Source: Deltaproteobacteria bacterium
GTDB lineage: Bacteria; Desulfobacterota; DSM-4660; Desulfatiglandales; HGW-15
Direction: 5' to 3'
Assembly (NCBI GenBank): GCA_019313825.1
Contig: JAFDAM010000001.1
Location: forward strand, 13,121-77,120
Length of the DNA: 64,000 nt
In this document: piece by piece, positions 4,595 to 62,826 of the stretch
How the letters are laid out: each line of letters starts with the position of its first letter
Position numbering within the stretch: position 1 is the first letter of the stretch
Translations under genes and position numbers: made by a program
The notes under the pieces: model-generated
Told to the model about the DNA's origin: nothing
Databases searched by the model: none
Seen by the model: the letters and a program-made list of their open reading frames with translations, nothing else

Positions 4595-4627
4595 ATTCTT
4601 CAAACCTTTGGAAAAATCACTTTTTTT

Positions 4628-15225: not shown

Positions 15226-15298
15226 ATATATTTTAGTATCCGCTGGAAGGTTGTAGACCGGTTTTATCTAAGATCAAAAGAGGTATGGGGGATGATAT

Positions 15299-16959: not shown

Positions 16960-17447
16960 GTTATCTAAAAAACCGCGACGACTGTCAAAACGGATTGATA
17001 ACAGGTATTACTTAGGGCCCACTATGTTTTTGACGTAAGACAAGTTGCAGGAAAGACAAAATTTATTGCGCCGATGGTCCTAAGGCTCAGTTAAAAAACA
17101 ATAAATCATAAGTTAAAATTTTGTCTTTGAATTCAAAAGCTTCCCATGATTTGCCTTATAGTGTATAAAAACATCCACAATTATTAATCTCCGGTTTTCT
17201 CTTATTTTTGCCCTATTTTGACGATTTTCATTTTTTTTGTTTCATTTTTCGATCTTCTTTCTAGTGCAAATGTTCCTCCCGTTTTAGGTAAGGTTCTTGC
17301 ACTGGCATGAAGACGCCTGTAAATCAAGGAGATTAAATTTTTATCATTGTGTTTGTCTTTATATTGAGATATGGATAAAAAATATTTTAATAAAAATTAA
17401 AAAAATTATTTTTCTTATTTTTCTTAAAATAATCGAAAAAGGTTGAA
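16960..17447. other. AT-rich divergent intergenic region (dnaA-1 / ddl); possible origin-like or DnaA-regulatory region
   Basis: Very AT-rich with long T/A tracts. Only degenerate DnaA-box-like 9-mers were seen (acATCCACA at 17171-17179, TaTGGATAA near 17372). Confidence 0.3.
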
Positions 17448-18820: not shown

Positions 18821-18836
18821 TGTTTCACGTGAAACA
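18821..18836. promoter_or_regulatory. parS centromere site
   Basis: TGTTTCACGTGAAACA matches the chromosomal parS consensus tGTTNCACGTGAAACa. It is embedded in a 26-bp perfect palindrome (18816-18841), 170 nt upstream of parA. Confidence 0.85.
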
Positions 18837-19008: not shown

Positions 19009-19788
19009 ATGGGACAGGTCATCTCCATATCAAATCAGAAAGGCGGTGTCGGCAAGACCACGACCGCCGTGAATCTATCCGCTTCCCTCGCGTCGACAGA
19101 TAAAACATGTCTGCTTATAGACTGTGACCCCCAGGGTAATGCAACAACAGGTTTAGGCGTAGATAAGTCTGGTTTAGAAAACGGGTTTTATGAATTCATG
19201 TTTGGCTCCGAACCTGAGGAAAACGTTGTCACTGAGACCGATCTGCCCGGGCTATTCCTCATGGGTGCTACGAATGACTTGATAGGTGCTGAGGTGGAGA
19301 TGGTCATTTTTGATGATAGAGAATACCTTCTTAAAAAAAGACTTATGCCTCTAAAGGAAAAATATGACTATATCTTCCTGGATTGCCCCCCATCTCTCGG
19401 TTTTTTAACGCTGAATGCAATGACAGCCGCAGATTCGGTTCTGGTCCCCCTTCAGTGCGAATACTACGCCCTGGAGGGGCTGAGTGAATTGTTGAAAATC
19501 CTCAAAGCCGTCAAGAAGGGGCTTAATCCATCCCTTAATCTGGCCGGAATACTGTTAACAATGCATGATTCCCGCAATAATCTCTCAGCGCAGGTGGAGG
19601 ATGAGGTTAGGGGGCATTTTCAAGGGGTAGTATTCAATACGATTATTCCTCGAAATGTACGGCTGAGTGAGGCCCCAAGTTATGGGACGCCTATTCTTCT
19701 CTATGATATTAAGTCCATAGGTGCCCGGAGCTATCTTGCCCTGGCAAAAGAACTGATTAGCCGTGGAGGAAATTATGGCAAAACGTAA
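19009..19788 (+). CDS. parA: Chromosome partitioning ATPase ParA/Soj
   Basis: Deviant Walker A NQKGGVGKTTT. ParA-family throughout. Confidence 0.9.
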   Translation: MGQVISISNQKGGVGKTTTAVNLSASLASTDKTCLLIDCDPQGNATTGLGVDKSGLENGFYEFMFGSEPEENVVTETDLPGLFLMGATNDLIGAEVEMVIFDDREYLLKKRLMPLKEKYDYIFLDCPPSLGFLTLNAMTAADSVLVPLQCEYYALEGLSELLKILKAVKKGLNPSLNLAGILLTMHDSRNNLSAQVEDEVRGHFQGVVFNTIIPRNVRLSEAPSYGTPILLYDIKSIGARSYLALAKELISRGGNYGKT

Positions 19789-20620
19789 GGCCTTGGGAAA
19801 GGGATTATCGGCCCTTATCCCTGAAGCGAACAGGTTTGAAGCAGGGGGTGAGGAGTATTTTCAGTGCCCAATAGAGGAAATAGAGCCAAACCCGTATCAA
19901 CCACGCCAGGACTTCAAAAATGCTGATCTGGAAGAACTTGTCCTGTCAATAAAAGAGACGGGTATTATCACACCTATTCTGGTAAGCAAGGCAGAAAAGG
20001 GGTATCGTCTCATAGCGGGTGAACGCCGATGGAGGTCAGCTCAGAAGGCGGGTCTTAAAAGGGTACCTGTAGTAGTCAGAGAAACCACCCCCATTGAATC
20101 TCTGGAGTTGGCTTTAATAGAGAATATTCACAGAAAAGACCTGAATCCCATAGAAGAGGCCCTTGCCTATAAAAGATGGTTGGATGATGCCAATACCACC
20201 CAGGAGGCCCTTGCAAAGAAACTTGGCAAGGAACGTTCTACCATTACCAACATGCTAAGGCTACTTAATCTCTCACATGTCATTCAGAAGGATCTGATCG
20301 ACGGTCATCTCTCCATGGGCCATGCTCGTGTCCTGGCCGGGCTCAAAAGCGCGGATGAGCAAAAGAGAGTCCGGAATCTGATAATCAAAAAGGCCCTTTC
20401 AGTTCGCCAGTTGGAGGAATTGATTACAAAGAAGAGGCCGGGTGACCGTGTAAAAAAGAAAAAAGAGGAACAGGACCATTATATACAATCCCTTGCTGAC
20501 GATCTCAAAAGGTCATTGGGTACAAAAGTAGATATAAAGAAACGCGGGAATAGAGGAAGTATTAACATCTATTTCTATTCTGATGATGAACTCACTCGGC
20601 TTCTTGACCTTCTGACATGA
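19775..20620 (+). CDS. parB: Chromosome partitioning protein ParB/Spo0J
   Basis: MAKRKALGKGLSALI N-terminus, the GERRWRA arginine patch and an HTH region. Start taken at the internal ATG overlapping the parA end. Confidence 0.9.
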   Translation: MAKRKALGKGLSALIPEANRFEAGGEEYFQCPIEEIEPNPYQPRQDFKNADLEELVLSIKETGIITPILVSKAEKGYRLIAGERRWRSAQKAGLKRVPVVVRETTPIESLELALIENIHRKDLNPIEEALAYKRWLDDANTTQEALAKKLGKERSTITNMLRLLNLSHVIQKDLIDGHLSMGHARVLAGLKSADEQKRVRNLIIKKALSVRQLEELITKKRPGDRVKKKKEEQDHYIQSLADDLKRSLGTKVDIKKRGNRGSINIYFYSDDELTRLLDLLT

Positions 20621-24098: not shown

Positions 24099-24557
24099 TT
24101 ATTCCAGATTGGCGTACATTCGTTCCATCATATCTTTGAACTTTTTTAAATCATTCTTTGAAATATTATTAAATATCTTGTCCTGGGCAGATGAGGATAT
24201 AAGGAACAACTCCTTTTTCATTTTTACCGCCTTGTTCGTTTTAATGATCAGATGTTTCCGTCGATCATCAGGATCAGGCCTACGATCTATGAAGCCGTTT
24301 TTTTCCATCACATCTAGCATCCTAGTTATATTCGGTGTGTCCTTTGCTAATGCTTTTGCCAATTCTATCTGAGATAACCCGTCTTCTTTAAAAAGTACCT
24401 GCAATATACCCCAATGATCCGTGGTTAGGGGATAACCATTTTCATTAAATCTACGCTGGAGCTCAAGCTTCATCCTCAAAAGTGTTCTACTCATAAGAGA
24501 TCCAATATTATTAGCAAGCAAAAGCGGACTGATTTTCCGTTTGTCTTTCATTTTCAA
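24099..24557 (-). CDS. MarR-family transcriptional regulator
   Basis: Winged-HTH MarR pattern (LSQIELAKALAKDTPNITRMLDVMEKNGFIDRRPDPDDRR). Confidence 0.85.
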   Translation of the reverse strand: MKMKDKRKISPLLLANNIGSLMSRTLLRMKLELQRRFNENGYPLTTDHWGILQVLFKEDGLSQIELAKALAKDTPNITRMLDVMEKNGFIDRRPDPDDRRKHLIIKTNKAVKMKKELFLISSSAQDKIFNNISKNDLKKFKDMMERMYANLE

Positions 24558-32308: not shown

Positions 32309-32385
<77 letters not shown>

Positions 32386-46562: not shown

Positions 46563-49022
46563 CTATTCATCCATTAATTTTGCCACTCCAACTACCTTCT
46601 CTCCTTCGCCCAGGTTAATCAGTTTTACACCCTGGGTGTTCCGGCCGATGACAGAGATATCCGCCACCCCCATCCTGATGATCTTCCCCTGTTCGGTAAT
46701 GATCATCAGCTCATCCTGATTAGCCACCTGATAGGAATAGACAACCGGTCCGTTTCTCTCCGTGGCCTTTATGGTCAGTATCCCTTTACCGCCCCTTGAC
46801 TGGCACCGGTATTCTTCTGTCTTGGTCCTCTTTCCAAATCCGTTCTCCGTAACAGTGAGGATCGTGGCCCCCTCCTTAAGAGCCTCCATCCCGACCGCTT
46901 CATCGTCAGGCTCCATCCGGATCCCGATGTTCCCCGCAGCCACCCTTCCCATACCCCTCAGGTCAGACTCCTTGAACCGGATGGATTTTCCCTGGCGTGT
47001 TGCTATAAAGATATCGTCTTCACCGCCTGTAACCCTCACACAGATCAGTTCATCGTCTTCATTGATCTTTAACGCGATAATGCCCTTGGTCCTCGGGTTG
47101 CTGTAAGCAATGAGTTCGGTCTTTTTGACCAGGCCCTTCTTTGTGGCCATGACAACGTACTTTGCATCCTCAAAGTCCCTGACATTCAGAGTGGTTGCTA
47201 CGCGCTCTCCCTTCTGTAGCTCAAGGAGGTTTACTATTGCCTTACCCCTTGCCATACGGCCCGCCTCTTGAATCTCGTGTACCTTCTTCCAGTAGACCCT
47301 GCCCTTGTTTGTGAAAAAGAGGAGATAATCAAGGGAGGAGGCTACAAAGAGGTGCTCAACAAAGTCCTCGTCCTTCGGCACAACACCGGTAAGGCCCTTT
47401 CCACCTCGGCGCTGTGCCCTGTAAAGGCTTATGGGGTTCCGCTTGATATAACCCCTGTGGCTCATGGTAACGACCATGTCCTCTTCGGCAATCAGGTCTT
47501 CAAGCCCTATCTCTCCGTCCTCTTCGAGGATCTCGGTCCTTCGCTCATCACCATAGAGTTTGGTGATCTCCTTCATCTCGTCCTTGATTATCTGAAGGAC
47601 CTTGTCCGGACTATCCATGATGGCCTTGAAGTGGGCAATATTTGTTATAAGCTCACTGTATTCAGCATCAATCTTCTCGCGCTCCAGGCCCGTAAGTCTC
47701 TGGAGTCTCAAGTTAAGGATCTCCTGGGCCTGGATATCTGTGAACTCAAACTCCTCGATCAGTCTTGCCTTTGCCTCCGCAGGATCAGATGAAGACCTGA
47801 TAAGAGCGATCACATCATCGAGAAAATCCAACGCCTTTTTATAGCCCTCAAGGATGTGTGCCCTGGCCTCGGCCTTATTGAGATCAAAAAGGGTCCTTCT
47901 TATTATGACCTCTCGGCGGTGATCGATGAATTGTTCCAGGATCTCCTTGAGGTTCAGGACCTGTGGCCTTCCCTTTACGATCGCGAGAAAGATGATCCCA
48001 AAAGAGATCTCCATCTGGGTGAACTTGTAGAGGCGATTAAGTATCACAAGGGCCTTTCCATCCCTCTTGACATCGATCACGATCCGCATACCGTCCCGGT
48101 CGGATTCATCCCTGATGTCTGATATCCCTTCAATTTTCTTGTTCTTTACAAGCTCCGCGATCTTCTCCAGAAGTCGTGCCTTATTAACCTGATAGGGAAT
48201 CTCCGAGACAATAACCCTCTCCAGGTTCTTGCCGACCATCTCGACAAAGGCCCTCGCCCGTATCTTGATAATTCCCCTTCCTGTTTTATAGGCCTCGGTT
48301 ATTCCCCTGCGACCAATGATAAATCCCGCTGTGGGAAAATCCGGACCCTGCACGACCCCTGTAAGTTCTCCCATGGAAATCTCAGGATTGTCGATCAGAT
48401 CGACTGTGGCACTACACACCTCACCAAGATTATGCGGAGGGATGTTTGTTGCCATACCGACGGCAATGCCTGATGATCCGTTTACCAGCAAGTTGGGTAT
48501 GCTTGTGGGAAGGACAAGCGGTTCAAGGAGAGAGTCGTCATAGTTTGGCCCGAAATCCACTGTCTCCTTCTCCAGGTCTGACAGGAAGTCCTGGGCAAGT
48601 CTGGTCATGCGGACTTCGGTATATCGCATTGCGGCAGCAGGATCACCGTCAACAGAGCCGAAATTCCCCTGCCCGTCTATAAGGGGGTACCTTAAAGAGA
48701 AGTCCTGGGCCATCCTTACGATCGTGTCATAGACCGCAACATCCCCGTGAGGGTGGTACTTACCTATTACATCACCCACAACGCGGGCCGATTTTTTATA
48801 CGGCCTGTTGTAGTAATTTTTCAGGTCGTGCATTCCAAACAATACACGTCTGTGTACCGGTTTCAGCCCATCACGAATATCGGGCAGCGCCCTCCCCACT
48901 ATCACACTCATGGAGTACTCGAGATAGGCCTTCTTCATCTCTTCTTCTATGTTTACAAAAGTAAAATTACCATTCGAGACCATTTCTATTCCCCAAAATT
49001 CAGGCGAAGAGCGTTCGGCCAA
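46563..49022 (-). CDS. gyrA: DNA gyrase subunit A
   Basis: [27 protein letters not shown], the active-site region AAMRYTE and C-terminal beta-pinwheel repeats. The exact start is uncertain (alternative Met 14 codons in). Confidence 0.95.
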
Positions 49023-49064: not shown

Positions 49065-51467
<2,403 letters not shown>

Positions 51468-52583
51468 CTATATCCTCATCGGCATAACCAGGCCTAAAAA
51501 ACCTTTATCTTCTTCACCTTTTATTAGACATGGGCTGGAATTATCTATTAGTCCCAGTTCAACAATATCACTATCCATAGACTGAAGCACATCTAAAAAA
51601 TACCGTGAATTAAAACCCATCTCAAGGTGTTCATCTTTATATTCCACTACTATATTATCCTGAGCATCTCCAAGATCGGGATTAATTGAAACAAGTTTTA
51701 GATTATTATCTTCCATAATAATTTTTACTCCCCTGTAACTCTCACTACTCAAGATAATCATTCTCTTCATACCATCTAATAGCTCCTTATTTTTTATCTT
51801 TACTTGATATTTAACAGCCTTAGGAATAACAGAATTATAATCAGGAAACTTAGTTTCTAAAAGTCTAATCACAATAAGAGAATTCCCTTTTCTAGCCACA
51901 CAATTATTCTTTTTAAACCCTAAAAATATCTTCTCACCTTTAGTTATTAATCTATCCAACTCCTGCATTCCTTTTTTTGGTATCATAACTCCGTTGTCTA
52001 TCTTTAGATCTTCAATATTCTCGATCTCTTTATCCATCATAGATAAGCGGTGTCCATCTGTCGAGACCATTCTTAGATATGTCTTTCCCTTTTTATCTAC
52101 CTTTTCTATATATATCCCTGAGAGTTTAAACCCTGCCTCCTCTAATGTTACGGAATATATGGTCTTATTAATCATCTCGCTTAATACATCTCCTTCTATT
52201 TCAACCATACTTACCCCTTCAGGTTCAACAAAGACGGGAAATTCTTCAGCCGGGAGACATGCCATATTATATTTTGTCTTATCATCTGATATAAATACCC
52301 AGTTATTTTCTTTCTCTTTTAAATAAATATCCTGACTTTTACTTTCCTTTAATATCTCAAATAATTTTCTACCTAATATGGTGATACTTCCTGGATTTAT
52401 GACTTCAGCCGGAATCGTCTGCTGAAGACTTATCTCTAAATCAGTGGCTGATATCTGTATTCCCGAATCAACAGTTGATAAAAGTATCATTGATAGAATA
52501 GGCATATTACTCCTCTTCTCAACAATACTTTGAACCCTGGAAAGAGATCCATAAAGTTCGTCCCTTTTAATCTTTATCTCCAT
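51468..52583 (-). CDS. dnaN: DNA polymerase III beta sliding clamp
   Basis: Three-domain clamp pattern and a C-terminal ..GLVMPMRI. Start at MEIKIKRDEL with GGAGGAG 6 nt upstream. Markedly AT-rich coding sequence. Confidence 0.9.
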   Translation of the reverse strand: MEIKIKRDELYGSLSRVQSIVEKRSNMPILSMILLSTVDSGIQISATDLEISLQQTIPAEVINPGSITILGRKLFEILKESKSQDIYLKEKENNWVFISDDKTKYNMACLPAEEFPVFVEPEGVSMVEIEGDVLSEMINKTIYSVTLEEAGFKLSGIYIEKVDKKGKTYLRMVSTDGHRLSMMDKEIENIEDLKIDNGVMIPKKGMQELDRLITKGEKIFLGFKKNNCVARKGNSLIVIRLLETKFPDYNSVIPKAVKYQVKIKNKELLDGMKRMIILSSESYRGVKIIMEDNNLKLVSINPDLGDAQDNIVVEYKDEHLEMGFNSRYFLDVLQSMDSDIVELGLIDNSSPCLIKGEEDKGFLGLVMPMRI

Positions 52584-52844
52584 ATGTATCTCCTCCATTC
52601 TAAATATTATTTTTATAGTATTAAATATTAATAATAATAATATATATTGTTACATTTTTAGAAACTTAATTAACTCATTGAAAATAGAATAAATTTATTA
52701 ATTAAAATTTAAACATAGATTCTATTGTTTTAAAATATATTAGTTAAAAAATTATATTTTTCTTCTTCTAAATAAAAATTTTGAAAGAGATAGAAAGTTT
52801 TTTTAAAAGTAGTGAAAAAAAGTATAGAAAGTATTTTATTAATA
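52584..52844. other. Extremely AT-rich dnaA-dnaN intergenic region (candidate DNA-unwinding/origin element)
   Basis: Almost pure A/T for ~250 bp. Direct repeat ATAGAAAGT x2 (about 52790 and 52824). No consensus TTATCCACA boxes seen. Confidence 0.35.
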
Positions 52845-54152
52845 TCAGTTTAAAAAATTTTCAATATTATTAATATCTTCCCTTATATCTTTTCTTTTGT
52901 TTTTTAATTTATCTATCTTTTTAACCGCGTAGATTATTGTTGAGTGATCTTTATCTCCATATAGATATCCAATCTCAGAAAAAGAAAGATCTGTATGTTT
53001 TCTGCATAGATACATAGAAATATGTCTTGGGTAAGAATAAAACCTCTTTTTTTTATCAGAAATAAGCTCAGATACTGAGATATTAAAATACCCGGACGTA
53101 ATAGATTGTATATCTTTTACACTTAACTTAATACCTTTATTATTTTTAATAATAGATTTTATCATAGAGATATTAATATCTCCGTTATTCAGAGATGAAT
53201 AAGTTTCAAATCTAACAATATTTTTTAATAAACTTTTTATATTATCATTGGTTTTAACTAATAAAGATATTATATCCTTTGGAATATTAATTTTATTCTC
53301 TTTTATTTTTCTTTTAATAATATTTAATTTTGTATTTTGATCATATTCCTTAATCTCGATTAAAAGACCCCATCCTAATCTCGACTTTAATTGAGAATTA
53401 ATATTATTGATTCTGTTTAAAGGTCTGTCTCCGGTTACGACAATCTGTTTGTTTTCCATGTATAGATCATTAAATATAGAGAGAAATTCTTCCTGTACCC
53501 TTTTTCGGTTGGAGATATGTTGAATATCGTCAAATAATAATATATCTATATTAAGATATTTTTCTCTAAATTTATCAAAAATATTATTTCTTACTGAATA
53601 ATTATAATCAGACAGAAAGGTTTTAGATGATACATATCCTATTCGAAAATAAGGATCTTTATTAAGTATCTGATTACCTATTGCATTTAATAGATGAGTC
53701 TTACCAAGGCTTAGATTAGAAAAGATGTAGATAGGGTTATAATGGTTTCCCGGTCTATTAGCCACTTCAAAAGATGAGGAAAAGGCAAACCTATTACACT
53801 CCCCTATTATAAAACTGTCAAAAGTCATAGATATGTTTATATTATATTTAAATAAATCTGATTGTTTGGTTTGCTGTGGCTGAGATGATATGACTGTGGT
53901 TGACGGGTTATTATGTGAAAAGACTATCTCAGGAGCCTCTTTTAGTATCCGTTTAAAAGATTGTTTTATCTCTTCGAGGTAGTTATCGCGTAACCATTTG
54001 ATAATGAACTTGTTTGGGACCCCTATAATTGCGACATTATTATCCAGTTTATTAAGGGTTATCTGTGAGAACCATGTTTCAAATTCAGGTCTGGGTATTC
54101 GCTGTTTTAGACTTCTTGTGATCTGGTCCCAAATCCCAATTTCTGTTGACAT
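52845..54152 (-). CDS. dnaA: Chromosomal replication initiator DnaA paralogue 2 (canonical synteny, very AT-rich, atypical P-loop and Arg-finger region)
   Basis: Walker B LLFDDIQHI, SLGKTHLLNAIGN, RL.WGL and domain IV DKDHSTIIYA. The P-loop starts SNLSLGKT, and the box VII position reads NIKSLLKNI (Lys where Arg is expected). Confidence 0.85.
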   Translation of the reverse strand: MSTEIGIWDQITRSLKQRIPRPEFETWFSQITLNKLDNNVAIIGVPNKFIIKWLRDNYLEEIKQSFKRILKEAPEIVFSHNNPSTTVISSQPQQTKQSDLFKYNINISMTFDSFIIGECNRFAFSSSFEVANRPGNHYNPIYIFSNLSLGKTHLLNAIGNQILNKDPYFRIGYVSSKTFLSDYNYSVRNNIFDKFREKYLNIDILLFDDIQHISNRKRVQEEFLSIFNDLYMENKQIVVTGDRPLNRINNINSQLKSRLGWGLLIEIKEYDQNTKLNIIKRKIKENKINIPKDIISLLVKTNDNIKSLLKNIVRFETYSSLNNGDINISMIKSIIKNNKGIKLSVKDIQSITSGYFNISVSELISDKKKRFYSYPRHISMYLCRKHTDLSFSEIGYLYGDKDHSTIIYAVKKIDKLKNKRKDIREDINNIENFLN

Positions 54153-54252
54153 ATTAAGATATTAACCTATATGTTTTATTAAGATAAAAATAAATTAATT
54201 TTAGAAAATTTTTAGTGGAATATCAACTAAAAATTTCTAAAAGGAGGATATA

Positions 54253-55002
54253 ATGACGTACTCTATTGGACTTGCCGGGAAAGGTGGAACCGGCAAGACA
54301 ACCATTGCAGGTCTGTTGATCAAATATCTCAATGAAAAAGGGAAGATTCCGGTCCTGGCAGTAGATGCAGATTCAAATGCCAATCTGAATGAGGTCCTGG
54401 GGCTTGAGGTCACGGAGACCCTTGGAGACGCAAGGGAAGAGATGAAGAAAGGTGTCTCTACTGGTATGACAAAAGATATATTTATGGAGATGAAACTGGG
54501 GGAGGCGGTTGTTGAGACAGAAGGCTTTGACCTTATCGTCATGGGTAGGCCTGAAGGGAGTGGTTGTTATTGTGCGGCCAACACATTACTTACCCAGTAT
54601 CTTGACAGATTAATAGATAATTATTCATGTGTAGTAATAGACAATGAAGCGGGGATGGAACATATCAGCAGGCTGACCACCAATAACATCGACCTACTTC
54701 TGATCATCTCCGATGCGTCACGAAGAGGCATCCTGTCCGCTGCCAGGATATCTGCTCTGACAGATGATTTGGGATTGAATATAGGAAATAAACTATTTAT
54801 TATTAATCAAGTGAAAGAGGGACAAGAGGAGGCATTAAAAAAGGCTGCGGATGAGCATCAACTGGAACTGGCCGGTATCATACCTGAGGACGACCTGGTA
54901 CGGGAATTTGATCTAAAGGGTAGACCTACAATTGAGCTTGACAAAAAGAGTAATGCCTTTAAGGCGGCATATGAGGTCTTTGATAGGATAATAGACATAT
55001 AA
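54253..55002 (+). CDS. cooC: CODH/ACS nickel-insertion accessory ATPase CooC/AcsF
   Basis: Deviant Walker A GKGGTGKTT and CooC-type CxC (GSGCYCAAN). RBS AAGGAGG. Confidence 0.85.
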   Translation: MTYSIGLAGKGGTGKTTIAGLLIKYLNEKGKIPVLAVDADSNANLNEVLGLEVTETLGDAREEMKKGVSTGMTKDIFMEMKLGEAVVETEGFDLIVMGRPEGSGCYCAANTLLTQYLDRLIDNYSCVVIDNEAGMEHISRLTTNNIDLLLIISDASRRGILSAARISALTDDLGLNIGNKLFIINQVKEGQEEALKKAADEHQLELAGIIPEDDLVREFDLKGRPTIELDKKSNAFKAAYEVFDRIIDI

Positions 55003-55089
55003 AATCAATATATAGTGTTGTTATAACAATAAAACTCAATATATAGTTTTTTACCTATATAAACAGCTCGTTTTATTGAGAAAAACTGC

Positions 55090-55118
55090 TTGACAAGAAA
55101 CACGTTGGAATCTATATG
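55090..55118 (+). promoter_or_regulatory. Sigma-70-like promoter candidate upstream of acsD
   Basis: TTGACA-17 nt-TATATG. Preceded by a direct repeat TCAATATATAGT x2 (about 55006 and 55037). Confidence 0.35.
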
Positions 55119-55273
55119 TTACTGTCTGAACCCTCTTGAAAAGGGTTTATTTTTTTGTTATGCTTTGTTATATTTTTCACATAAAAACAAGTGTCATAAT
55201 TTCAATAAGTTACCATACTTAACAATCGGAATCCAAGAATTTTTTTATAATCCAAATAAAGGAGGTAAAGAAA

Positions 55274-56824
55274 TTGGCCTTTGAAATTCCAAAACAACCC
55301 TATTCCGGAGAGATAGGAGAGACCACCATCGGTACAGGTAAGGGCGCTGTTACGCTGGGAGGGGAAGATTCATACCCTTTCCATACCTTTGAAGGAAAGA
55401 TGCCGAACCCTCCAAAGATCGCCATGGAGGTCTGGGATTACGATCCAACAGAGGAGTGGCCGGCAGCGGCAGTTGAGCCCTTTAAGGATGTAATATCATC
55501 GCCGGATGCATGGGCAAAAAAATGTGTTGATGAACATGGGGCTGACATGATAGTGCTCCAACTAAAGAGTACCGACCCCAACGGAATGGACAGGGGTGCG
55601 GACGAGGCCGCTGAAGTAGCGAAAAAGGTGGCTGATGCCGTTGACGTGCCGCTGGTCTTATGGGGTACGGCAAATAACCAGAAAGACGAAGAGGTCCTTA
55701 AAAAGATCTCAGAGGTATGTGAAGGGAAAAATGTGGCGCTTGGTCCGGTTGAAGAGGGGAATTACAAGGCAGTCGGTGCAAGCGCCTTGGGTTATAATCA
55801 CATTATTATCTCATCATCACCCATTGACGTGAATCTGGCCAAGCAGTTGAATATTCTCCTTGGAAACCTCGGGGTCCAGAGCAATAAAATCATCATAGAT
55901 CCCACGACAGGCGGACTCGGTTACGGCATGGAATACGGCTACTCCGTCATGGAGCGGATCCGTATGGCTGCCCTGACACAGGAAGACGAAAAACTCCAGA
56001 TCCCCATGATCAACAATATAGGTAATGAGGTATGGAAGTGCAAGGAGGTCAAGCAGCCCATAGATGAGGCCCCTGCGCAGGGTGACCCGGAGAAACGGGC
56101 TATCATGATGGAGGCGACAGCCGCTGTATGTTATCTGCTTGCCGGATCTGATGTGGCCATCCTCAGGCACCCTGAGAGCGTGCGTCTGACCCGTTCTTTC
56201 ATCGATCTCATGATCAACGGCGGTATGGCCACCGACGTTACGGAGATTGCAAAGAACCTGGACCTTGAAGAGGCTGATCTGACTGCCATATCGCCTGAGC
56301 CGAACCTTGACTTTGGTGAAAAAGAGGCATCCAGAGAGAAGCCTGCCAAGCCCAAGAAGAAGGAAGCGCCCAAGCCCAAAAAGGAAGCAAAGACGGCCGC
56401 GCCCAAACTCAAGAAGAAGGAAGAGCCTAAGGTAAAGGCCAAAGATGAGGCCAAGGCAAAGGCCGAGGATGAGGCCAAGGCAAAGGCCGAGGATGAGGCC
56501 AAGGCAAAGGCCGATGCCGACGCCAAGGTAAAGGCCGAAGAGGGTGCCAAGGCTGAGGCGGATGCTAAGGCAAAGGCCGACGCTGCGGCAAAGGCCGAAG
56601 ATGATGCCCGGAAAAAGGCCGAGGCCGACGCCAGGGCAAAACGCGAGGCTGGAGAGGATGAGCAGAGGCAGAAGAGGGCGGCTGAGCGGGAAAAACTCGC
56701 GGCAGAGAGAAAAAAGGTCCCTGAAAAGCCTGATACAATGACCCCTGCGGCTGTGCAGAAGACAGAGCAGGAAAAGATATTAGAGCATCTGAACAGGATA
56801 CACAGGAGAATACCTTTATATTAA
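55274..56824 (+). CDS. acsD: Corrinoid iron-sulfur protein small subunit (AcsD/CdhD type) with a ~190-aa Lys/Ala/Glu-rich C-terminal extension
   Basis: TTG start after AAAGGAGGT. The N-terminal ~330 aa are AcsD-like (TIM-barrel pterin-binding-like, ..LVLWGTAN.., ..IIDPTTGGLGYG..). The tail is low-complexity AKAKAEDE repeats. Confidence 0.8.
   Translation: MAFEIPKQPYSGEIGETTIGTGKGAVTLGGEDSYPFHTFEGKMPNPPKIAMEVWDYDPTEEWPAAAVEPFKDVISSPDAWAKKCVDEHGADMIVLQLKSTDPNGMDRGADEAAEVAKKVADAVDVPLVLWGTANNQKDEEVLKKISEVCEGKNVALGPVEEGNYKAVGASALGYNHIIISSSPIDVNLAKQLNILLGNLGVQSNKIIIDPTTGGLGYGMEYGYSVMERIRMAALTQEDEKLQIPMINNIGNEVWKCKEVKQPIDEAPAQGDPEKRAIMMEATAAVCYLLAGSDVAILRHPESVRLTRSFIDLMINGGMATDVTEIAKNLDLEEADLTAISPEPNLDFGEKEASREKPAKPKKKEAPKPKKEAKTAAPKLKKKEEPKVKAKDEAKAKAEDEAKAKAEDEAKAKADADAKVKAEEGAKAEADAKAKADAAAKAEDDARKKAEADARAKREAGEDEQRQKRAAEREKLAAERKKVPEKPDTMTPAAVQKTEQEKILEHLNRIHRRIPLY
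56444..56515 (+). repeat. Three tandem 24-nt coding repeats (GATGAGGCCAAGGCAAAGGCCGAG) inside the acsD tail
   Basis: Perfect x2 plus one copy with one end mismatch. Encodes (DEAKAKAE)x3. Confidence 0.9.
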
Positions 56825-57027
56825 TAAAATCATTTCATGATTTTATATAACGCGGCTTCGCCGCTCTAAGCTTCGCCATGGGCGGAGCGTTATATAAAAT
56901 TGCGTAGCAATTTTATCCCTGTGCACGGCACGGGGTATTCTGGCTGAGTTATTTTGAAAGTCCCGCGAAACGGGACGTTACATGAAATCGTGTAGCGATT
57001 TCATAAAACTATGAGGAGGAACCTCTG
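56825..57027. repeat. Mosaic of small hairpin modules in the acsD-acsA intergenic spacer
   Basis: AAAATCATttcATGATTTT; a GC unit AACGCGGCTTCGCCGC..GGCGGAGCGTT; AAAATTGCgtaGCAATTTT; CCCTGTGCACGGCACGGGGTATTCTGGCT (also at 36895-36927); GTCCCGCGAAACGGGAC; GAAATCGtgtaGCGATTTC. Confidence 0.8.
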
Positions 57028-59055
57028 ATGGCAGAAGAGAAAAAAGAAAAGGCAGCCAAACCGTTGAAACTAGCTGATCCGGTCGCGGCTTCCATGGATG
57101 TGGCAACCCAGGAGATGATAGTGCGATCCCATGACCTGGGTATAGAGACGGTCTTTGACAGGGCCCAGACAATGAAACCATGTAATATCGGAATCCAGGG
57201 CACATGCTGTAAGAATTGTTCCATGGGTCCATGCCGCCTTCCCTTGCCCAAGAGCGGGATAGAGGGGGAAGACACACGAAAAGGCCTTTGTGGCGCCACG
57301 GCCAACACCATCGCTGCGCGTAATTTTATCAGGATGATCGCCGGCGGCGCCGCGGCGCACTCCGATCACGGCCGCTGCGTTGCAGAGGTCTTTATGTCGG
57401 CTGCTCGAAAAGAGACAGAAGCCTATAAGATAAAGGACACGGTAAAACTCCTTGCAATCGCCCCACATCTCGGCGTCGAGACTACGGTTGAGGTTGATGG
57501 CGAGACAAAGGACAGGGATATCGATGAGATCGCCCTTGAAGTGGCTGAAAAGGCCCTTAACGAATGGGGCAAGGCAGAAGGTGAGCTGCTCTACCCTAAG
57601 AGAGCCCCGGAGGCGTTGTATGAGAAGTGGAAAAAGAACGGTGTGCTTCCCAGGAACATAGACAGGGAGATTGTTGAGATCATGCACCGAACCCACATGG
57701 GCGTTGACCAGGACTACAGGAACCTGATCAAGCAGGGCACCAGGGCGGCCATTGCGGACGGCTGGGGCGGCTCCATGCTGGCGACGGACCTTCAGGACGT
57801 TCTCTTCGGGACACCATCACCTATCTTGTCGGAAGCGAACCTCGGTGTCATGAAGGAGGACCATGTAAACATCATTGTACACGGACATGAGCCCGTATTA
57901 TCCGAGATGATCGTGGCTGTCTCCCAGAAGCCGGAGATAATAGAGTATGCCAAATCCAAGGGTGCCAAGGGCATCCAGTTGGGCGGTATATGCTGTACAG
58001 CCAATGAGATCCTACAGCGTCACGGGATCCCCACTGCGGCGACATTCCTCCAGCAGGAGCTCGCCATCATCACAGGGGCGTGCGATGCTATGGTTGTGGA
58101 TATCCAGTGTATCTTCCAGAACCTTGCAAACGTTGCAAAGTGCTTCCACACCAAGCTGATTACCACCCATCCCATAGCCAAGATGGAGCAGGACAACGTC
58201 ATCCACATCGAGTTTGACGAGCATCACGCGCTTGAGGACGCCGAGAGGATCATCAGGATGGCAATCGATAACTTTGAAAACAGAGGCACTGAAGTTATGA
58301 TACCGAAACACAAGGCGACCCAGGTCGCTGGTTTCGGTGTTGAATCCATAGAGTACCACCTCGGCGGTACATTCCGCGGCTCATATTACACCTTGAACGA
58401 TAATATAATCAATGGCCGCATCCGGGGTATCGCCGGCGTGGTGGGTTGCAACAACGCCAGGACAAGACACAATGAAGGCCATATCACGGTCGTAAAAGAG
58501 CTGATCAAGAACGACGTGATAGTGCTTACAACCGGTTGCAACGGCATCGCCTGTGCCATGGAGGGGCTGCTGACACCCGAGAGCGCCGCTGTCCATTGCG
58601 GTCCCGGCCTGGCAGAGGTCTGCGAGACAGTAGGTATTCCGCCTGTCCTGCACCTCGGATCATGTGTCGATAATAGCCGTATCCTGCTGGCCGCAACAGA
58701 GGTGGTAAAGGCAGGAGGACTCGGAAATGACATCTGTGATCTGCCTGTCGCAGGCAGCGCCCCTGAGTGGATGAGCGAAAAGGCCATCAGCATCGGTCAT
58801 TATTTCGTTGTGTCAGGCGTGTATACGGTCTTCGGCGTCACCCTGCCCACATCAGGTGCACCAGTATTCCATAACTACATCAGCAAGGATCTGGAGAAGA
58901 TCTACGGTGGGATGTGGGATATCGAGCCTGACCCGATTAAGCACGCACGGCTTATGATCGCCCATATCGACAAGAAACGTAAGGAACTCGGCATAGACAA
59001 GGCCAGAGAGAGGGTTCTTATGGATATGGCGGATCGCCAGGCCTTGGACGCTTAA
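57028..59055 (+). CDS. acsA: Carbon monoxide dehydrogenase catalytic subunit (AcsA/CooS type)
   Basis: N-terminal Cys clusters (CNIGIQGTCCKNCSMGPCRL), C-cluster ligand regions (HGHEP, GGICCTANE, GCNN, GSCVDN). Confidence 0.92.
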   Translation: MAEEKKEKAAKPLKLADPVAASMDVATQEMIVRSHDLGIETVFDRAQTMKPCNIGIQGTCCKNCSMGPCRLPLPKSGIEGEDTRKGLCGATANTIAARNFIRMIAGGAAAHSDHGRCVAEVFMSAARKETEAYKIKDTVKLLAIAPHLGVETTVEVDGETKDRDIDEIALEVAEKALNEWGKAEGELLYPKRAPEALYEKWKKNGVLPRNIDREIVEIMHRTHMGVDQDYRNLIKQGTRAAIADGWGGSMLATDLQDVLFGTPSPILSEANLGVMKEDHVNIIVHGHEPVLSEMIVAVSQKPEIIEYAKSKGAKGIQLGGICCTANEILQRHGIPTAATFLQQELAIITGACDAMVVDIQCIFQNLANVAKCFHTKLITTHPIAKMEQDNVIHIEFDEHHALEDAERIIRMAIDNFENRGTEVMIPKHKATQVAGFGVESIEYHLGGTFRGSYYTLNDNIINGRIRGIAGVVGCNNARTRHNEGHITVVKELIKNDVIVLTTGCNGIACAMEGLLTPESAAVHCGPGLAEVCETVGIPPVLHLGSCVDNSRILLAATEVVKAGGLGNDICDLPVAGSAPEWMSEKAISIGHYFVVSGVYTVFGVTLPTSGAPVFHNYISKDLEKIYGGMWDIEPDPIKHARLMIAHIDKKRKELGIDKARERVLMDMADRQALDA

Positions 59056-59090
59056 TTAATAAATAATAATCCTCAACGAAGGAGGAAGAT

Positions 59091-61304
59091 ATGTCAAAGT
59101 TAGTAGCATTTGCTGCCATTCAGGGCGGCTACAAGGTTGTTTCAACGGTCGAGGGTGAATTGCGAAACGCCCTCGATAGTTATGATGCAAGCACAAAGAT
59201 AGGGTTTCCGAATACAGCCTATTACCTTCCGGTTATCTATTCACTGACCGGCATGAAGTGTGAGACCCTTGAAGACCTTCAGAAACCCATGGAATTTGCC
59301 CACGGACTTCTTCCGCCGCATATAAAGAGCAAGAACCACCTGCCCTATCTCGGGCCGCTTCTGGACGCGGGCATGGCAGCCATCTTTGCCTATGAGGTAA
59401 AAGAGGCGTTGCGTATTCTAAGGGAGCCGGACTTCTATATCGCAGAGGAAGACCCGGACCTTGATGCGGGAAAGATGTGGGTAGGCCCGGCTGATGACAC
59501 GATCCTCAGAAAGAGGGGTGTTGAGTTTGTTGACGGTTCCGCCCCGGGTTTTGCCGCAATCGTGGGCGCTGCGCCTGATCCGGAGATCGCCAAGATGATA
59601 GTTGAAGACTACCAGAAGAAGAGTCTCTATATCTTCTGTGCCGCGAACCACAATGGCAGGACCCTTATTGAGCAGTGTATCGAGGCAGGCATGCAGGTCG
59701 GCTGGAATACGAGGATCGTTCCCTTCGGACCGGACATCTCGTCCGCCGTATTTGCCCTCGGTTTTGCCAACAGGGCCGCGATGGCATTCGGCAATGTCCA
59801 GCCCGGTGACCATAGCAAGATGCTCATGTACAACAAGGACAGGATCTTTGCCTTTGTCAACGCCCTGGGTGATATCGGGACGGAATGGGCCTGCGCTGCC
59901 GCAGGATGCGTAAACTGGGGTTTCCCCACACTTGCGGACACGGATATCCCGGAGATCCTCCCCACCGGTATCTGTACATACGAGCACGTGGTGGCAAACG
60001 TGCCCCATGACGAGATGTGCCAGAGGTCGGTTGAGGTCAGGGGCCTGAAGGTCACCATAGCCGAAATCGATATCCCATGCTCCTTTGGTCCTGCCTTTGA
60101 GGGAGAACGCGTAAGGGGCGCTGACCTGTATGCCCAGTGCGGGGGCGGCAAGAGCCAGTGTACGGAGCTCGCCAAGATGGCCGACATGAAGGAGATAGAG
60201 GACGGAAAGGTCGAGGTTGTCGGACCGGAACTGAATGAAGTCGAAGAAGGAGGCATCTTTCCGCTGGGCATCTATGTCCAGTGTGCGGGCCGTGAATTCC
60301 AGACCGATTTTGAGCCGATCCTGGAACGCCAGATCCATCACCTGGTCAACTATATCCAGGGCATCATGCACATAGGACAGAGGGATATCGCATGGATCCG
60401 AGTGAGCAAGGCGGCCGTTGACAAGGGCTTTTCCATAAAGGATATCGGCACCGTGATTCACGCCAAGTTCCATCAGGATTTCAAAAAGATCATAGACAAG
60501 GTCCAGGTAACCCTCTACACCAAGAAGGATGACGTAGACGCGCTGACAAAGAGGGCCAGGGCCGAATACAAGACAAGGGATGAGCGCGTGGAGAACATGA
60601 GGGACGAGGATGTGGAGACCTACTACTCATGCACCCTCTGCCAGTCATTTGCCCCATCCCACGTCTGTTCCGTAAGCCCTGAAAGGACGGGGCTCTGCGG
60701 TGCGTATAACTGGATGGACTGTAAGGCATCATATGAGATCAATCCCACGGGACCCAACCAGCCCATTGAGAAGGGAGAGTGCCTTGACCCGGTGCTGGGC
60801 CAGTGGAAGGGTGTCAACGAGTTTATTGAAAAGGCGTCCAGGGGCACCGTCACCCATTACAACTTCTACTCCATGCTGCTCGATCCCATGACCACGTGCG
60901 GCTGCTGTGAGTGTATCGCGGCAGTGCTGCCGTCATGTAACGGCGTGATGACCGTGCACAGGGATTATCGTGGCGAAACCCCCTGCGGCATGAAGTTCAC
61001 GACCCTGGCAGGTGTCATGGGCGGCGGCGCTGCTTCGCCGGGCTTTGTGGGTCACTCCAAGTTCAATATTACCCAGGGCAAGTTTATCCTGGGGGACGGC
61101 GGACTCCTGAGAATGGTATGGATGCCCAAGTCCTTGAAGGAGGAGATCAAGGAGAGGATCGATAAACGCGGCGCGGAGATGGGTTGTCCTGATCTGTATG
61201 ACAGGATCGCCGATGAGACGGTTGGAATCACAGAGGACGAGATTCTTCCTTTCCTCCGGGAGAAGGAGCATCCGGCCGTGAAGATGGATTCCATTGTGGG
61301 TTAA
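59091..61304 (+). CDS. acsB: CO-methylating acetyl-CoA synthase (AcsB, bacterial alpha subunit)
   Basis: A-cluster motifs (SCTLCQSFAPSHVC...GLCG, CGCCEC) and the typical ~730-aa length. Confidence 0.92.
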   Translation: MSKLVAFAAIQGGYKVVSTVEGELRNALDSYDASTKIGFPNTAYYLPVIYSLTGMKCETLEDLQKPMEFAHGLLPPHIKSKNHLPYLGPLLDAGMAAIFAYEVKEALRILREPDFYIAEEDPDLDAGKMWVGPADDTILRKRGVEFVDGSAPGFAAIVGAAPDPEIAKMIVEDYQKKSLYIFCAANHNGRTLIEQCIEAGMQVGWNTRIVPFGPDISSAVFALGFANRAAMAFGNVQPGDHSKMLMYNKDRIFAFVNALGDIGTEWACAAAGCVNWGFPTLADTDIPEILPTGICTYEHVVANVPHDEMCQRSVEVRGLKVTIAEIDIPCSFGPAFEGERVRGADLYAQCGGGKSQCTELAKMADMKEIEDGKVEVVGPELNEVEEGGIFPLGIYVQCAGREFQTDFEPILERQIHHLVNYIQGIMHIGQRDIAWIRVSKAAVDKGFSIKDIGTVIHAKFHQDFKKIIDKVQVTLYTKKDDVDALTKRARAEYKTRDERVENMRDEDVETYYSCTLCQSFAPSHVCSVSPERTGLCGAYNWMDCKASYEINPTGPNQPIEKGECLDPVLGQWKGVNEFIEKASRGTVTHYNFYSMLLDPMTTCGCCECIAAVLPSCNGVMTVHRDYRGETPCGMKFTTLAGVMGGGAASPGFVGHSKFNITQGKFILGDGGLLRMVWMPKSLKEEIKERIDKRGAEMGCPDLYDRIADETVGITEDEILPFLREKEHPAVKMDSIVG

Positions 61305-61482
61305 TAAAATTGCTATGCAATTTTATAGAACGCACCGCCTGCGGCGGAGCACAGAGCGGCGAAGCCGTATTATAGAAAAATATGTTATACAATTTTATAC
61401 AACGCTCCGCCTGCGGCGGAGCTTAGAGCGGCGAAGCCGCATTATATAAAATCGTGAAACGATTTTATTAGAGGAGATAATT
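61305..61482. repeat. Alternating AT-hairpin / GC double-hairpin modules in the acsB-acsC spacer (two tandem GC units)
   Basis: AAAATTGCtatGCAATTTT; [CGCACCGCCtgcGGCGGAGC..GCGGCgaaGCCG]; ..; [CGCTCCGCCtgcGGCGGAGCTTAGAGCGGCgaaGCCGC]; AAAATCGtgaaaCGATTTT. The GC unit is the reverse complement of the one at 56848-56894. Confidence 0.85.
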
Positions 61483-62826
61483 ATGGGATTAACCGGAATT
61501 CAGATCTTTAAATTGTTGCCCAAGACAAACTGTGCGGAGTGCGGTGTTCCAACATGTCTGGCCTTTGCAATGAACCTGGCATCAGGAAAGGCGGAGCTGG
61601 ACGATTGCCCCTATGTGTCTGATGAGGCAAAAGAGCAACTGGCAGAGGCCTCGGCGCCCCCGATCAGGCCGGTCGCGATCGGCGCAGGAGACAGGGCCTT
61701 CAAGTCCGGCGGTGAGACGGTTTTGTTCAGGCATGAGAAAACCTTTTATAACCCCACTGGTCTTGCCGCCATGATAAGCTCTGACATGGACCTGGGGGAC
61801 CTGGATAAGAAGCTGAAGGAATGGAATGCCCTTCAGTACGAGAGAGTCGGTCTGAACCTGAGGCCCGAGCTCGTTGCCCTGAAGGACGCAGGTGACGCCG
61901 CTGCATTTGCAGCTGCCGCTAAAAAGATCGCCGAAGAGAGCGAGTTCGGCCTCGTCCTGATGAGTGAGAACGCGGACGCCATAAAGGCCGCGGTCGAGGC
62001 GAGCGCCTTCAAGAAGCCGATCATCTATGTTGCGACAGCAGACAATGCGGATGATATGGGTGCTATTGCCAAGGACAGCAATGTGCCCCTTGCGATAAAG
62101 GCTGACAATGTGGAGGGCCTGATCGCCTTGAGCGACAAGCTGACAGGCATGGGCCTTAAGGACCTGATCCTTGATTCAGGATCAAGGGAGATGAAGCAGC
62201 TATTTGAGGACCAGGTTGCCATCAGAAGGGCGGCCCTCAGGGGCGGGAACAAGTCTCTTGGTTTTCCAACCATCACCTTCCCGTGCGAGATGGCCTCGAA
62301 CCTTGATATGGAGACCATCATAGCCTCCATGCTGATCGCCAAGTATGCGGGCATAGTGGTGCTCTCGGATTTCAAGGGCGAGAACGTATTCCCGCTGCTC
62401 CTGGAGAGGTTGAACATATTTACCGATCCGCAGAGACCAATGACCGTTACCCAGGGTATCTACGAGATCGGCAGCCCGGATGAGAACTCACCGGTGCTGG
62501 TCACCACCAATTTCTCCCTGACCTACTTTATTGTCAGCGGTGAGATCGAGGCGAGCAGGGTCCCGAGCTGGCTACTCATCCTGGATACAGAGGGGCTTTC
62601 GGTCATGACCGCGTGGGCCGCGGGCAAGTTCTCAGGCGATGTTGTGGGCATGTTCGTCAAGAAGTGCGGTATTGCGGACAAGGTAGCCCACAAGAAGATC
62701 ATCATCCCAGGCTATGCCGCAGCCATAGCCGGCGAAATGGAAGAGGAGCTTCCTGACTGGGATATCATGATCGGGCCCAGGGATGCGGCGCTGATAACAA
62801 AGTTTCTTAAAGATAACTGGAAATAA
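61483..62826 (+). CDS. acsC: Corrinoid iron-sulfur protein large subunit (AcsC/CdhE type)
   Basis: N-terminal [4Fe-4S] motif KTNCAECGVPTCLAFA...CPY, a TIM-barrel middle and a C-terminal B12-binding-like domain. Confidence 0.9.
   Translation: MGLTGIQIFKLLPKTNCAECGVPTCLAFAMNLASGKAELDDCPYVSDEAKEQLAEASAPPIRPVAIGAGDRAFKSGGETVLFRHEKTFYNPTGLAAMISSDMDLGDLDKKLKEWNALQYERVGLNLRPELVALKDAGDAAAFAAAAKKIAEESEFGLVLMSENADAIKAAVEASAFKKPIIYVATADNADDMGAIAKDSNVPLAIKADNVEGLIALSDKLTGMGLKDLILDSGSREMKQLFEDQVAIRRAALRGGNKSLGFPTITFPCEMASNLDMETIIASMLIAKYAGIVVLSDFKGENVFPLLLERLNIFTDPQRPMTVTQGIYEIGSPDENSPVLVTTNFSLTYFIVSGEIEASRVPSWLLILDTEGLSVMTAWAAGKFSGDVVGMFVKKCGIADKVAHKKIIIPGYAAAIAGEMEEELPDWDIMIGPRDAALITKFLKDNWK

Follow-up and report, generated by a model that had tools for sequence, protein, structure and literature searches.

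A clade-wide AT-rich valley centred on dnaA and dnaN in Desulfatiglandales-related bacteria and its probable link to the replication origin

Introduction

In Bacillus subtilis the replication origin oriC flanks dnaA, the unwinding element lies in the spacer between dnaA and dnaN, and the basal unwinding system consists of DnaA boxes and DnaA-trios, while the AT-rich unwinding elements of textbook origins measure tens of base pairs. Here we analyse the dnaA-dnaN locus of a 64-kb stretch of contig JAFDAM010000001.1 (hereafter the window), part of a metagenome-assembled genome deposited at NCBI and labelled Deltaproteobacteria bacterium. The window encodes two DnaA proteins, and an original prediction had drawn attention to a block of low GC content over dnaN and the dnaA copy next to it (dnaA-2). 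Our analysis suggests that this block is the core of a vertically inherited AT-rich valley shared by a whole clade of sulfate-reducer-type bacteria, that the valley has its centre at the 3' part of dnaA-2 and the spacer towards dnaN, most likely oriC, and that it is probably the product of a local, position-dependent force acting on the DNA.

The locus resembles a B. subtilis-type origin in its dnaA-dnaN-(gyrB) gene order, in its very AT-rich spacer and in a switch of strand composition between dnaA and dnaN. The spacer also contains (TTA)n, which reads (TAA)n on the other strand, as trio-like runs next to a short G/C cluster, and DnaA-2 aligns over its full length to the DnaA of the basal unwinding system structure 8BTG. 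It differs in that no consensus DnaA-box cluster is recognisable with the E. coli consensus, from which that of this lineage may differ, and in that the AT-rich zone, with a core of about 2.7 kb and 6-7 kb overall, runs through the coding sequences of initiator and clamp. Moreover, recF is absent between dnaN and gyrB, and a second DnaA paralog is present.

Horizontally acquired low-GC islands, as described by the amelioration model, show a similarly sharp GC drop together with a shift of codon and amino acid usage in a mid-GC genome. In contrast to such islands, the present locus consists of core replication genes, is syntenic and phylogenetically congruent throughout a deep clade, is at compositional equilibrium and carries no mobility signatures. 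The O-antigen and capsule clusters of enterobacteria have persistently low GC in mid-GC genomes, and are variable, exchanged between strains and not linked to the origin. They are alike in that low GC has long been kept at a defined locus, pointing to a maintaining force, but the locus described here is a vertically inherited core locus centred on dnaA-dnaN.

Two DnaA paralogs, dnaA1 and dnaA2, occur in chlamydiae. In Halomonadaceae, a single dnaA is accompanied by a predicted dual oriC (bioRxiv 10.1101/2025.08.05.668638). The window likewise has two full-length DnaA genes in one chromosome, both in the origin neighbourhood, but they encode proteins only 26% identical, lie 10-37 kb apart in this lineage and its relatives, one by dnaN and the other by parS/parAB, and only the dnaN-linked copy sits in a deep valley. 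No account of such an extended, initiator-reshaping valley or of such a DnaA paralog pair was found in the searchable literature. AT-richness close to an origin is ordinary; what is unusual here is its extent, depth and age, and its effect on the initiator gene.

Results

Composition of the block

The features of the locus, in coordinates of the window, are as follows.

46563 to 49022, minus strand: gyrA, baseline composition again, 50% GC
49065 to 51461, minus strand: gyrB, downstream shoulder of the valley, 46% GC
51468 to 52583 (open reading frame to 52598), minus strand: dnaN, sliding clamp, 371 amino acids from the probable true start
52584 to 52844, no strand: dnaA-2-dnaN spacer, probable oriC/unwinding region, about 12% GC
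52845 to 54152, minus strand: dnaA-2, full-length DnaA of 435 amino acids, deepest coding part of the valley
54153 to 54252, minus strand: dnaA-2 promoter region, a 100-bp gap upstream of dnaA-2, 16% GC
54253 to 55273, plus strand: upstream shoulder, cooC-like ATPase gene (44% GC) and cooC-cdhD gap (26% GC)

The block at 51468-54252 (2785 bp) had a GC content of 28.4% compared to 47.6% for the remainder of the window, the overall GC content of which was 46.7%. Two 1-kb windows, at 52-53 and 53-54 kb, had 27.4 and 27.2% GC (z = -4.5 and -4.6 relative to the other 1-kb windows of the 64 kb, mean 47.5%, standard deviation 4.4%), and of all 2785-bp windows without overlap with the block the lowest had 38.0%. 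The computed sliding-window profile thus bore out the visual estimate of the original prediction, about one-third GC or less against about one-half. At 200-bp resolution, GC changed from 47 to 34% over 51.3-51.7 kb at the dnaN-side edge and from 31.5 to 44.5% over 54.1-54.5 kb at the cooC-side edge. Both edges coincide with gene ends, as had been proposed. The block does not stand alone and belongs to a wider valley, the shoulders of which are cooC, the gap between cooC and cdhD (26% GC) and gyrB, above all the 5' third of gyrB. The gap between dnaN and gyrB is 6 nt and not 7 as first stated, and across it the GC content of third codon positions (GC3) went from 0.22 to 0.53.

Within dnaA-2 (28.0% GC), the GC contents of the first, second and third codon positions (GC1, GC2 and GC3) were 32, 27.5 and 24%; GC3 was near normal in the first 60 codons (0.42) and 0.17-0.28 beyond. 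The corresponding values for dnaN were 33.5% GC and 30% GC3. With a GC3 of 24-30% compared to 44-69% in the other genes, the block has the atypical composition by which genomic islands are recognised. The encoded proteins were rich in lysine, asparagine and isoleucine, as predicted, these residues making up 34% of DnaA-2 and 26% of DnaN as compared to 22% of GyrB, and as compared to 13% of a GC-rich ortholog of DnaA-2. Among the neighbours, gyrB had 46.1% GC (GC3 54%, with about 0.45 over the first 240 codons and about 0.58 beyond), gyrA 50.4%, cooC 44.3%, and the genes for carbon monoxide dehydrogenase/acetyl-CoA synthase (CODH/ACS) 53-55%. Intergenic gaps elsewhere in the window had 30-46% GC. 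Since GC3 of dnaA-2 (24%) and the local non-coding DNA (spacer 12%, upstream gap 16%) lie below this baseline, relaxed codon selection alone is insufficient and was rejected as the sole cause of the composition.

The start of dnaN is probably at 52583, judging from the resulting length of 371 amino acids, which is that of all relatives, and from a preceding GGAGGAG. The spacer then measures 261 bp, in agreement with the nearly pure A/T stretch of about 260 bp noted before; depending on the dnaN start it is 246-261 bp, and the part between the open reading frames (ORFs) at 52599-52844 has 11.8% GC. DnaN has three beta-clamp Pfam domains, scores 279 bits on TIGR00663 and is 66-76% identical to the DnaN of relatives. 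In the window, dnaN had a strong excess of G over C at third positions (GC3 skew +0.52, C3 only 7%; +0.06 to +0.23 in relatives), which was mostly gone at four-fold sites (+0.09) and thus resides largely in two-fold codons.

Canonical DnaA proteins have the Walker A motif GxxGxGKT, DD in Walker B, an arginine finger and a sensor II arginine. DnaA-2 contains the Pfam domains DnaA_N, Bac_DnaA and Bac_DnaA_C, reaches 418 bits on TIGR00362 (curated equivalog cut-off 343.9) and aligns full length to B. subtilis DnaA (PDB 8BTG). Its family has a deviant P-loop, with a Walker A of the form [SC]xx[GS]xGKT (SNLSLGKT in the window copy, at about residues 143-153), and a conserved lysine in the place of the sensor II arginine (about residue 306); the DD of Walker B and the SR arginine finger are retained.

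Distribution among relatives

Relatives were defined as loci on contigs of other assemblies (NCBI, JGI, Logan and ENA; numbered with the prefix L) that encode DnaA-2 homologs, and a metagenome scan seeded with a DnaN alignment added 80 further loci; a single-protein scan of genome contigs with DnaA-2 gave no match. The dnaA-dnaN-gyrB-gyrA block was common to the relatives' contigs, several of which also carried the upstream cooC-CODH/ACS genes. The spacer elements, a TTxAAC-N17/18-TATxAT dnaN promoter-like element and the (TTA)n runs, were found in relatives as well. The top promoter-like site of our scan, a predicted TTGATA-N17-TAAAAT element at 54226 to 54198 on the minus strand, was kept upstream of dnaA in L001, L003, L002 and L086.

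The low GC content of dnaA was shared to varying degrees. It amounted to 26.1% in L001, 28.1% in L003, 31.8% in L085, 35.6% in L087 and 43.6-43.8% in L002 and L086, with gyrA at 47-51% in all six. An AT-rich dnaA (24-32% GC) beside mid-GC gyrB/gyrA was seen on at least 15 independent contigs of what we term the extreme clade, and in all loci of the scan with a DnaA at least 56% identical to that of the window, dnaA had 24-32% GC. Wherever one of the 80 metagenome loci included dnaA together with gyrB or gyrA, dnaA was below both in GC content, and the order dnaA < dnaN < gyrB < gyrA held in all clade loci for which the genes were tabulated individually. The shift was smaller for dnaN in relatives (GC3 0.39-0.49 in L001, L003 and L085).

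Pairwise identity matrices were congruent for DnaA, DnaN, GyrB and GyrA, and in the GyrB tree the extreme lineages (the window, L085, L105, L003, L111, L095, L001 and L099) formed one clade, which was also recovered in the DnaA tree. The sister group of this clade had a dnaA of 32-40% GC, and in more distant groups of the GyrB tree dnaA was 1-9 points under its own gyrB, or level with it in L136. The depth of dnaA GC was graded continuously along the phylogeny, from 61% to 25%. The GC-rich L005 (64% GC) was 72% identical to the window in GyrB, 78% in GyrA, 64% in DnaN and only 37% in DnaA, as expected from composition-driven divergence of one vertically inherited gene.

Homologs of both DnaA proteins of the window were labelled, for example, Desulfatiglandales and Thermodesulfobacteriota, and the check on nearest relatives that had been proposed for DnaA-2 and DnaN against GyrB returned the same lineage with similar composition, which speaks against transfer. 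The same synteny was found in all relatives sampled, with neither phylogenetic incongruence nor patchy presence. No mobility signatures were detected at the borders of the block, where flanking direct repeats were only short AT-rich chance matches and the neighbours are gyrB and cooC, and an Rfam scan of the window returned a single tRNA (32309-32382). Together, these sequence comparisons indicate that the low-GC block is vertically inherited and monophyletic across the clade, the lineage of the window being the extreme of a tendency across an order-level group (labels Desulfatiglandales, Thermodesulfobacteriota and Deltaproteobacteria).

Shape and maintenance of the valley

GC profiles were aligned on the start of dnaN, and mean profiles were computed for three clade groups (extreme, sister and outer). 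In the extreme clade, GC left its baseline of 0.48-0.52 at about -3.25 kb, sank to two minima, one of 0.20 within the 3' third of dnaA and one of 0.17 in the spacer, and was back at baseline by about +3.5 kb. The profiles of the sister and outer clades had the same V shape, only shallower, and the spacer was the minimum of the averaged profile in all three groups. Across lineages, spacer GC tracked dnaA GC. The gene adjoining dnaA upstream in relatives (cooC or surA) always had a lower GC than the genes beyond, and gyrB GC was lowest at the dnaN-proximal end. Since cooC/surA and the dnaN end of gyrB are depressed and the first 60 codons of dnaA are near normal, the valley crosses transcription units, strands and coding boundaries.

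At identical residues, four-fold sites of the window and the other extreme lineages matched at 0.21-0.46, compared to 0.21-0.33 expected from composition. Despite this saturation, GC3 was 16-33% in all 15 extreme-clade contigs, the opposite of what amelioration of an import would leave. Because synonymous sites are saturated between lineages and GC3 is still low, the low GC is actively maintained and not the fading signature of an import; the composition of the valley is at equilibrium. The locus thus lacks three of the four features that define a horizontally acquired island.

Extra conservation of synonymous sites in dnaA and dnaN, as would be left by an embedded DNA element, was looked for, and none beyond composition was found; the only rise in third-base identity coincided with the stretch of lowest GC3 and was attributed to composition. 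The enrichment of A/T was symmetrical, with the same four-fold TA skew in dnaA as in dnaN and gyrB. Strand-specific cytosine deamination was accordingly unsupported as a driver.

Position of the origin

The AT-rich non-coding spacer beside dnaA and dnaN is where an oriC would be expected, and a switch of strand asymmetry was found between the two genes. On the coding strand, four-fold GC skew was -0.195 in dnaA, -0.03 in dnaN and +0.01 in gyrB, all three genes lying on the same strand. The skew of dnaA was below that of dnaN in 45 of 57 lineages (p = 5e-7), which are not phylogenetically independent, and below that of gyrB in 30 of 33 (p = 5e-8). Such a change of polarity would be expected of replication forks that diverge from the spacer, dnaA then being the sole local head-on gene.

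In the gammaproteobacterial orders used as control, oriC lies away from dnaA. Using a control set of 74 diverse dnaA loci, taken from an alignment-based scan of genome contigs in which the matches listed were all generic DnaAs, we determined the dip of dnaA GC relative to its flanks. The dip was 0.000 +/- 0.016 in these gammaproteobacteria, -0.028 +/- 0.019 in other phyla, -0.069 +/- 0.033 in delta-labelled lineages and about -0.20 in the window, placing the clade of the window at the extreme of a graded, origin-associated tendency.

A single box-like site at the start of the spacer was seen in L001 and L085 only. A perfect box, TTATCCACA, lies in gyrB at 51319-51327, about 134 nt from the start of the gene, and recurs at that position in relatives; it follows from the codons that encode the conserved GyrB motif EVVDN and was discounted as evidence for an origin. 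On its sequence features we assign the locus with moderate confidence to the B. subtilis-type origin regions, a membership that is provisional because no DnaA-box cluster was found with the standard consensus.

The second dnaA gene and its surroundings

The second initiator gene lies in the following neighbourhood.

15043 to 15225, plus strand: small ORF beside dnaA-1
about 15296 to 15552, minus strand: small ORF beside dnaA-1
15553 to 16902, minus strand: dnaA-1, second full-length DnaA paralog, 449 amino acids from M20; 41.7% GC, a mild dip
17448 to 18389: ddl
18821 to 18836, no strand: parS TGTTTCACGTGAAACA, perfect, just upstream of parA
19009 to 19788: parA
19763 to 20620: parB

DnaA-1 has the same three Pfam domains as DnaA-2, to which it is 26% identical, scores 390 bits on TIGR00362 against the cut-off of 343.9 and aligns end to end to B. 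subtilis DnaA (8BTG). Its start is probably the 20th codon, which gives the 449 amino acids of its homologs. In the DnaA-1 family, Walker A is near-canonical, Walker B has EE (EG in the window) instead of DD, and the sensor II arginine is kept. DnaA-1 homologs were numerous and better conserved than those of DnaA-2, as in the genome containing L085 and L089, in which identity to the window was 74% for DnaA-1 and 56% for DnaA-2. Both homologs shared contigs in L087/L090, L085/L089, L119 and L166, with dnaA-1 typically convergent to dnaA-2 and 7-10 kb downstream of dnaN.

From gene order, dnaA-2 is best assigned as the positional ortholog of the canonical dnaA (dnaA-dnaN-gyrB-gyrA arrangement), and dnaA-1, judging from its homologs, as an old, conserved paralog next to parS/parAB and not a recent arrival; a distance tree did not decide which copy better represents the ancestral initiator. 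DnaA-1 is also present in the outer-group L166, where dnaA-2 has near-normal GC, so the paralogy predates the deepening of the valley and is not by itself its cause. A second DnaA was thus rejected as a sufficient cause of the AT shift.

The parS site and parAB suggest that the neighbourhood of dnaA-1 is origin-proximal. In L090 and L091, parB-parA is followed by a 1-2 kb intergenic region with parS and then dnaA-1, whereas in the window and L089 ddl adjoins dnaA-1 instead. The intergenic region upstream of dnaA-1 (16960-17447) contains blocks common to the window and L089, such as 17124-17145; among the conserved sequences are the palindromic TCTTTGAATTCAAAAGCTTCCC and a box-like site, TGTGGAT. 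In L089, four DnaA-box-like sites lie within about 770 bp upstream of dnaA-1. The conserved region may serve as a second origin, have a regulatory role or encode a small RNA.

Microsynteny around dnaA-1 was kept in L087/L090 and L089, comprising an ORF for a membrane protein of 85/86 amino acids and a 60-amino-acid ORF. In the window, gpsA (10474-11496) and birA (12648-13454) are found about 33 kb from gyrA, while in relatives they directly follow gyrA, which implies a rearrangement that widened the distance between the two dnaA loci from about 10 kb to about 36 kb.

On the other side, dnaA-2 adjoins a Wood-Ljungdahl CODH/ACS cluster (54253-62826) with genes for the cooC-like ATPase, CdhD, a Prismane/CODH subunit, the ACS beta subunit and one further gene. 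As the cooC-dnaA adjacency is kept in many relatives, a central carbon-fixation operon is the immediate neighbour of the putative origin. Elsewhere in the window, a 2.7-kb stretch at 3946-6609 (42% GC) contains only short ORFs, none of at least 150 amino acids, and the gene with the next-lowest GC content (36.8%), an ORF of 152 amino acids at 24099-24557, shows an odd GC3 skew of +0.39.

Discussion

We consider it probable that the block is the core of an inherited valley, about 6-7 kb wide and centred on the 3' part of dnaA-2 and the adjoining spacer, in which a position-dependent local force on the DNA would push every class of site towards A/T. Such a force would have to reach intergenic DNA, all three codon positions, both strands and unrelated neighbouring genes, and would have lasted long enough to remodel the amino acid composition of the initiator. 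The skew switch between dnaA and dnaN would mark oriC, and the AT-ward force may be tied to origin function. Our preferred reading is that selection maintains an extended, easily melted or protein-coated zone flanking the origin.

Several observations weigh against this interpretation. The edges of the block in the window are sharp and lie at gene ends, as a gene-level effect would predict more readily than a smooth positional one; the deepest point is within dnaA and not exactly in the spacer, and in most relatives dnaA is far more affected than dnaN. Within the window, the per-gene GC3-skew test preferred an origin at 52.7-54.2 kb only weakly (p about 0.15-0.19, not significant) and did not separate the spacer from the candidate on the dnaA-1 side; among relatives, the skew comparison draws on lineages that share ancestry, and the four-fold difference could in principle reflect gene-specific codon preference and not the replication strand. 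No match to TTATCCACA with at most one mismatch occurs in 51468-54252, and DnaA boxes of the E. coli consensus form no cluster either in the spacer or in front of dnaA-2, though that consensus may not be the one used by this host. Moreover, no motif beyond AT-rich words was found among seven spacers (15 shared 8-mers compared to 7 expected and a shuffle maximum of 17). Finally, the parA/ddl-dnaA-1 intergenic region, with its conserved non-coding blocks, box-like sites and parS, is an alternative candidate for the origin.

The original prediction had named origin-proximal compositional selection as one possibility. Of this, the position-dependent force at the level of DNA is what we favour, while the data do not distinguish selection from its alternative, a local mutation spectrum biased symmetrically towards A/T. 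The symmetrical enrichment and the lack of conservation beyond composition agree with selection on composition as such, be it for easy melting at low superhelical stress or for binding of an AT-preferring protein, and they fit a local mutation bias as well.

Another explanation places selection on the messages of dnaA-2 and dnaN, in which AT-rich, non-preferred codons and an AU-rich mRNA would throttle or destabilise initiator expression in very slow growers, the low GC then belonging to the transcript and not to the chromosomal position. The abrupt edges of the block at gene ends, the jump of GC3 from 0.22 to 0.53 over the 6-nt dnaN-gyrB junction, the conserved, predicted near-consensus promoter ahead of dnaA-2 and the stronger effect on dnaA than on dnaN in most relatives would all follow from it. 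However, the non-coding DNA is AT-richer than the coding DNA, with 12% GC in the spacer, 16% in the gap upstream of dnaA-2 and 26% between cooC and cdhD, all below the 30-46% baseline, and the spacer follows the GC content of dnaA across lineages. The valley also enters the divergent and unrelated cooC/surA as well as gyrB in its 5' part, dnaA itself is close to normal over its first 60 codons, and non-synonymous sites have shifted as strongly as synonymous ones (GC1 32%, GC2 27.5%). We therefore regard selection on the messages as unlikely, although the sharp edges of the block in the window keep a contribution at the gene level, through transcript or translation, among the rivals.

As a special case of selection at the DNA level, the valley might be a regulatory AT-island for a nucleoid-associated, silencer-like protein or for DnaA-1, controlling transcription of dnaA-2 and dnaN or access to the origin. 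In other bacteria, excesses of promoter-like sites are typically held in check by silencers. Here, 30 promoter-like sites were counted as compared to 19.9 +/- 4.4 in shuffled sequences; in addition, the A/T bias is symmetrical with no added strand-specific signature, conservation restricted to composition is what a composition-reading binder would leave, and a conserved second DnaA exists. On the other hand, no candidate binder was identified, the data do not separate such an island from plain selection for duplex instability, and L166 combines DnaA-1 with a near-normal dnaA-2, so that presence of the paralog does not suffice. In this specific form the proposal appears doubtful.

A replacement of dnaA-dnaN from an AT-rich donor had been put forward in the original prediction, and could be upheld only as an ancient event, at the root of the clade, after which the donor composition persisted. 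Composition and amino acid usage are indeed strongly atypical, and the DnaA-2 family stands apart from other Desulfobacterota DnaAs in a distance tree. General trends of GC content among codon positions give an expectation for GC1 and GC2 at a given GC3; in dnaA-2 both are below it, as in a partly ameliorated import. Yet the cooC-dnaA-dnaN-gyrB-gyrA synteny is kept through mid-GC and GC-rich relatives, the distances of DnaA, DnaN, GyrB and GyrA are congruent, the DnaA and GyrB trees agree, and the GC content grades from 61% to 25% along the phylogeny, with sloping shoulders in the flanking genes. Donor composition could not have persisted passively through synonymous saturation; att-like repeats, tRNA genes and mobility genes are all lacking at its borders; and the nearest DnaA-2 relatives among 5.8 billion proteins all belong to the same clade. 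We thus consider horizontal replacement highly improbable. An assembly or binning chimera joining dnaA-dnaN of an AT-rich organism to a mid-GC contig, also raised at the outset and compatible with the sharp edges and the metagenomic source of the window, is extremely improbable, since the same junctions and composition step, including the 6-nt dnaN-gyrB junction and the conserved cooC-dnaA promoter, recur in many independent assemblies (NCBI, JGI, Logan and ENA) that differ in sample and pipeline.

Returning to selection on an origin-flanking zone, we speculated on a more far-reaching version, which we hold to be rather improbable as it stands. The origin would be of an unusual type, a broad, box-poor, extremely AT-rich zone including most of the dnaA-2 coding sequence, opened or licensed mainly by composition and less by arrayed DnaA boxes, and served by two anciently diverged DnaAs. 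DnaA-2, with its deviant P-loop and sensor II lysine, and DnaA-1, with its altered Walker B, could divide the jobs of an initiator between them; alternatively, they could form a hetero-oligomer with asymmetric ATP sites. If so, the sustained GC gap of 20 points would either arise from this system as a by-product or be required by it.

Throughout the clade, in which genomes have 45-50% GC, a valley of several kilobases brings the initiator gene down to 25-32% and changes a third of the amino acid composition of DnaA-2, while the protein stays conserved and intact. As the valley has persisted through saturating synonymous divergence, adjacent essential genes on the same strand of the same genome are held at equilibria 20 GC points apart, providing a natural experiment on what sets bacterial GC content. 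It also calls for caution, as composition-based calls of horizontal transfer would mislabel core replication genes here. In conclusion, the valley and the conserved second DnaA by parS/parAB point to an uncultured sediment lineage in which the control of replication may differ from that of the model organisms.

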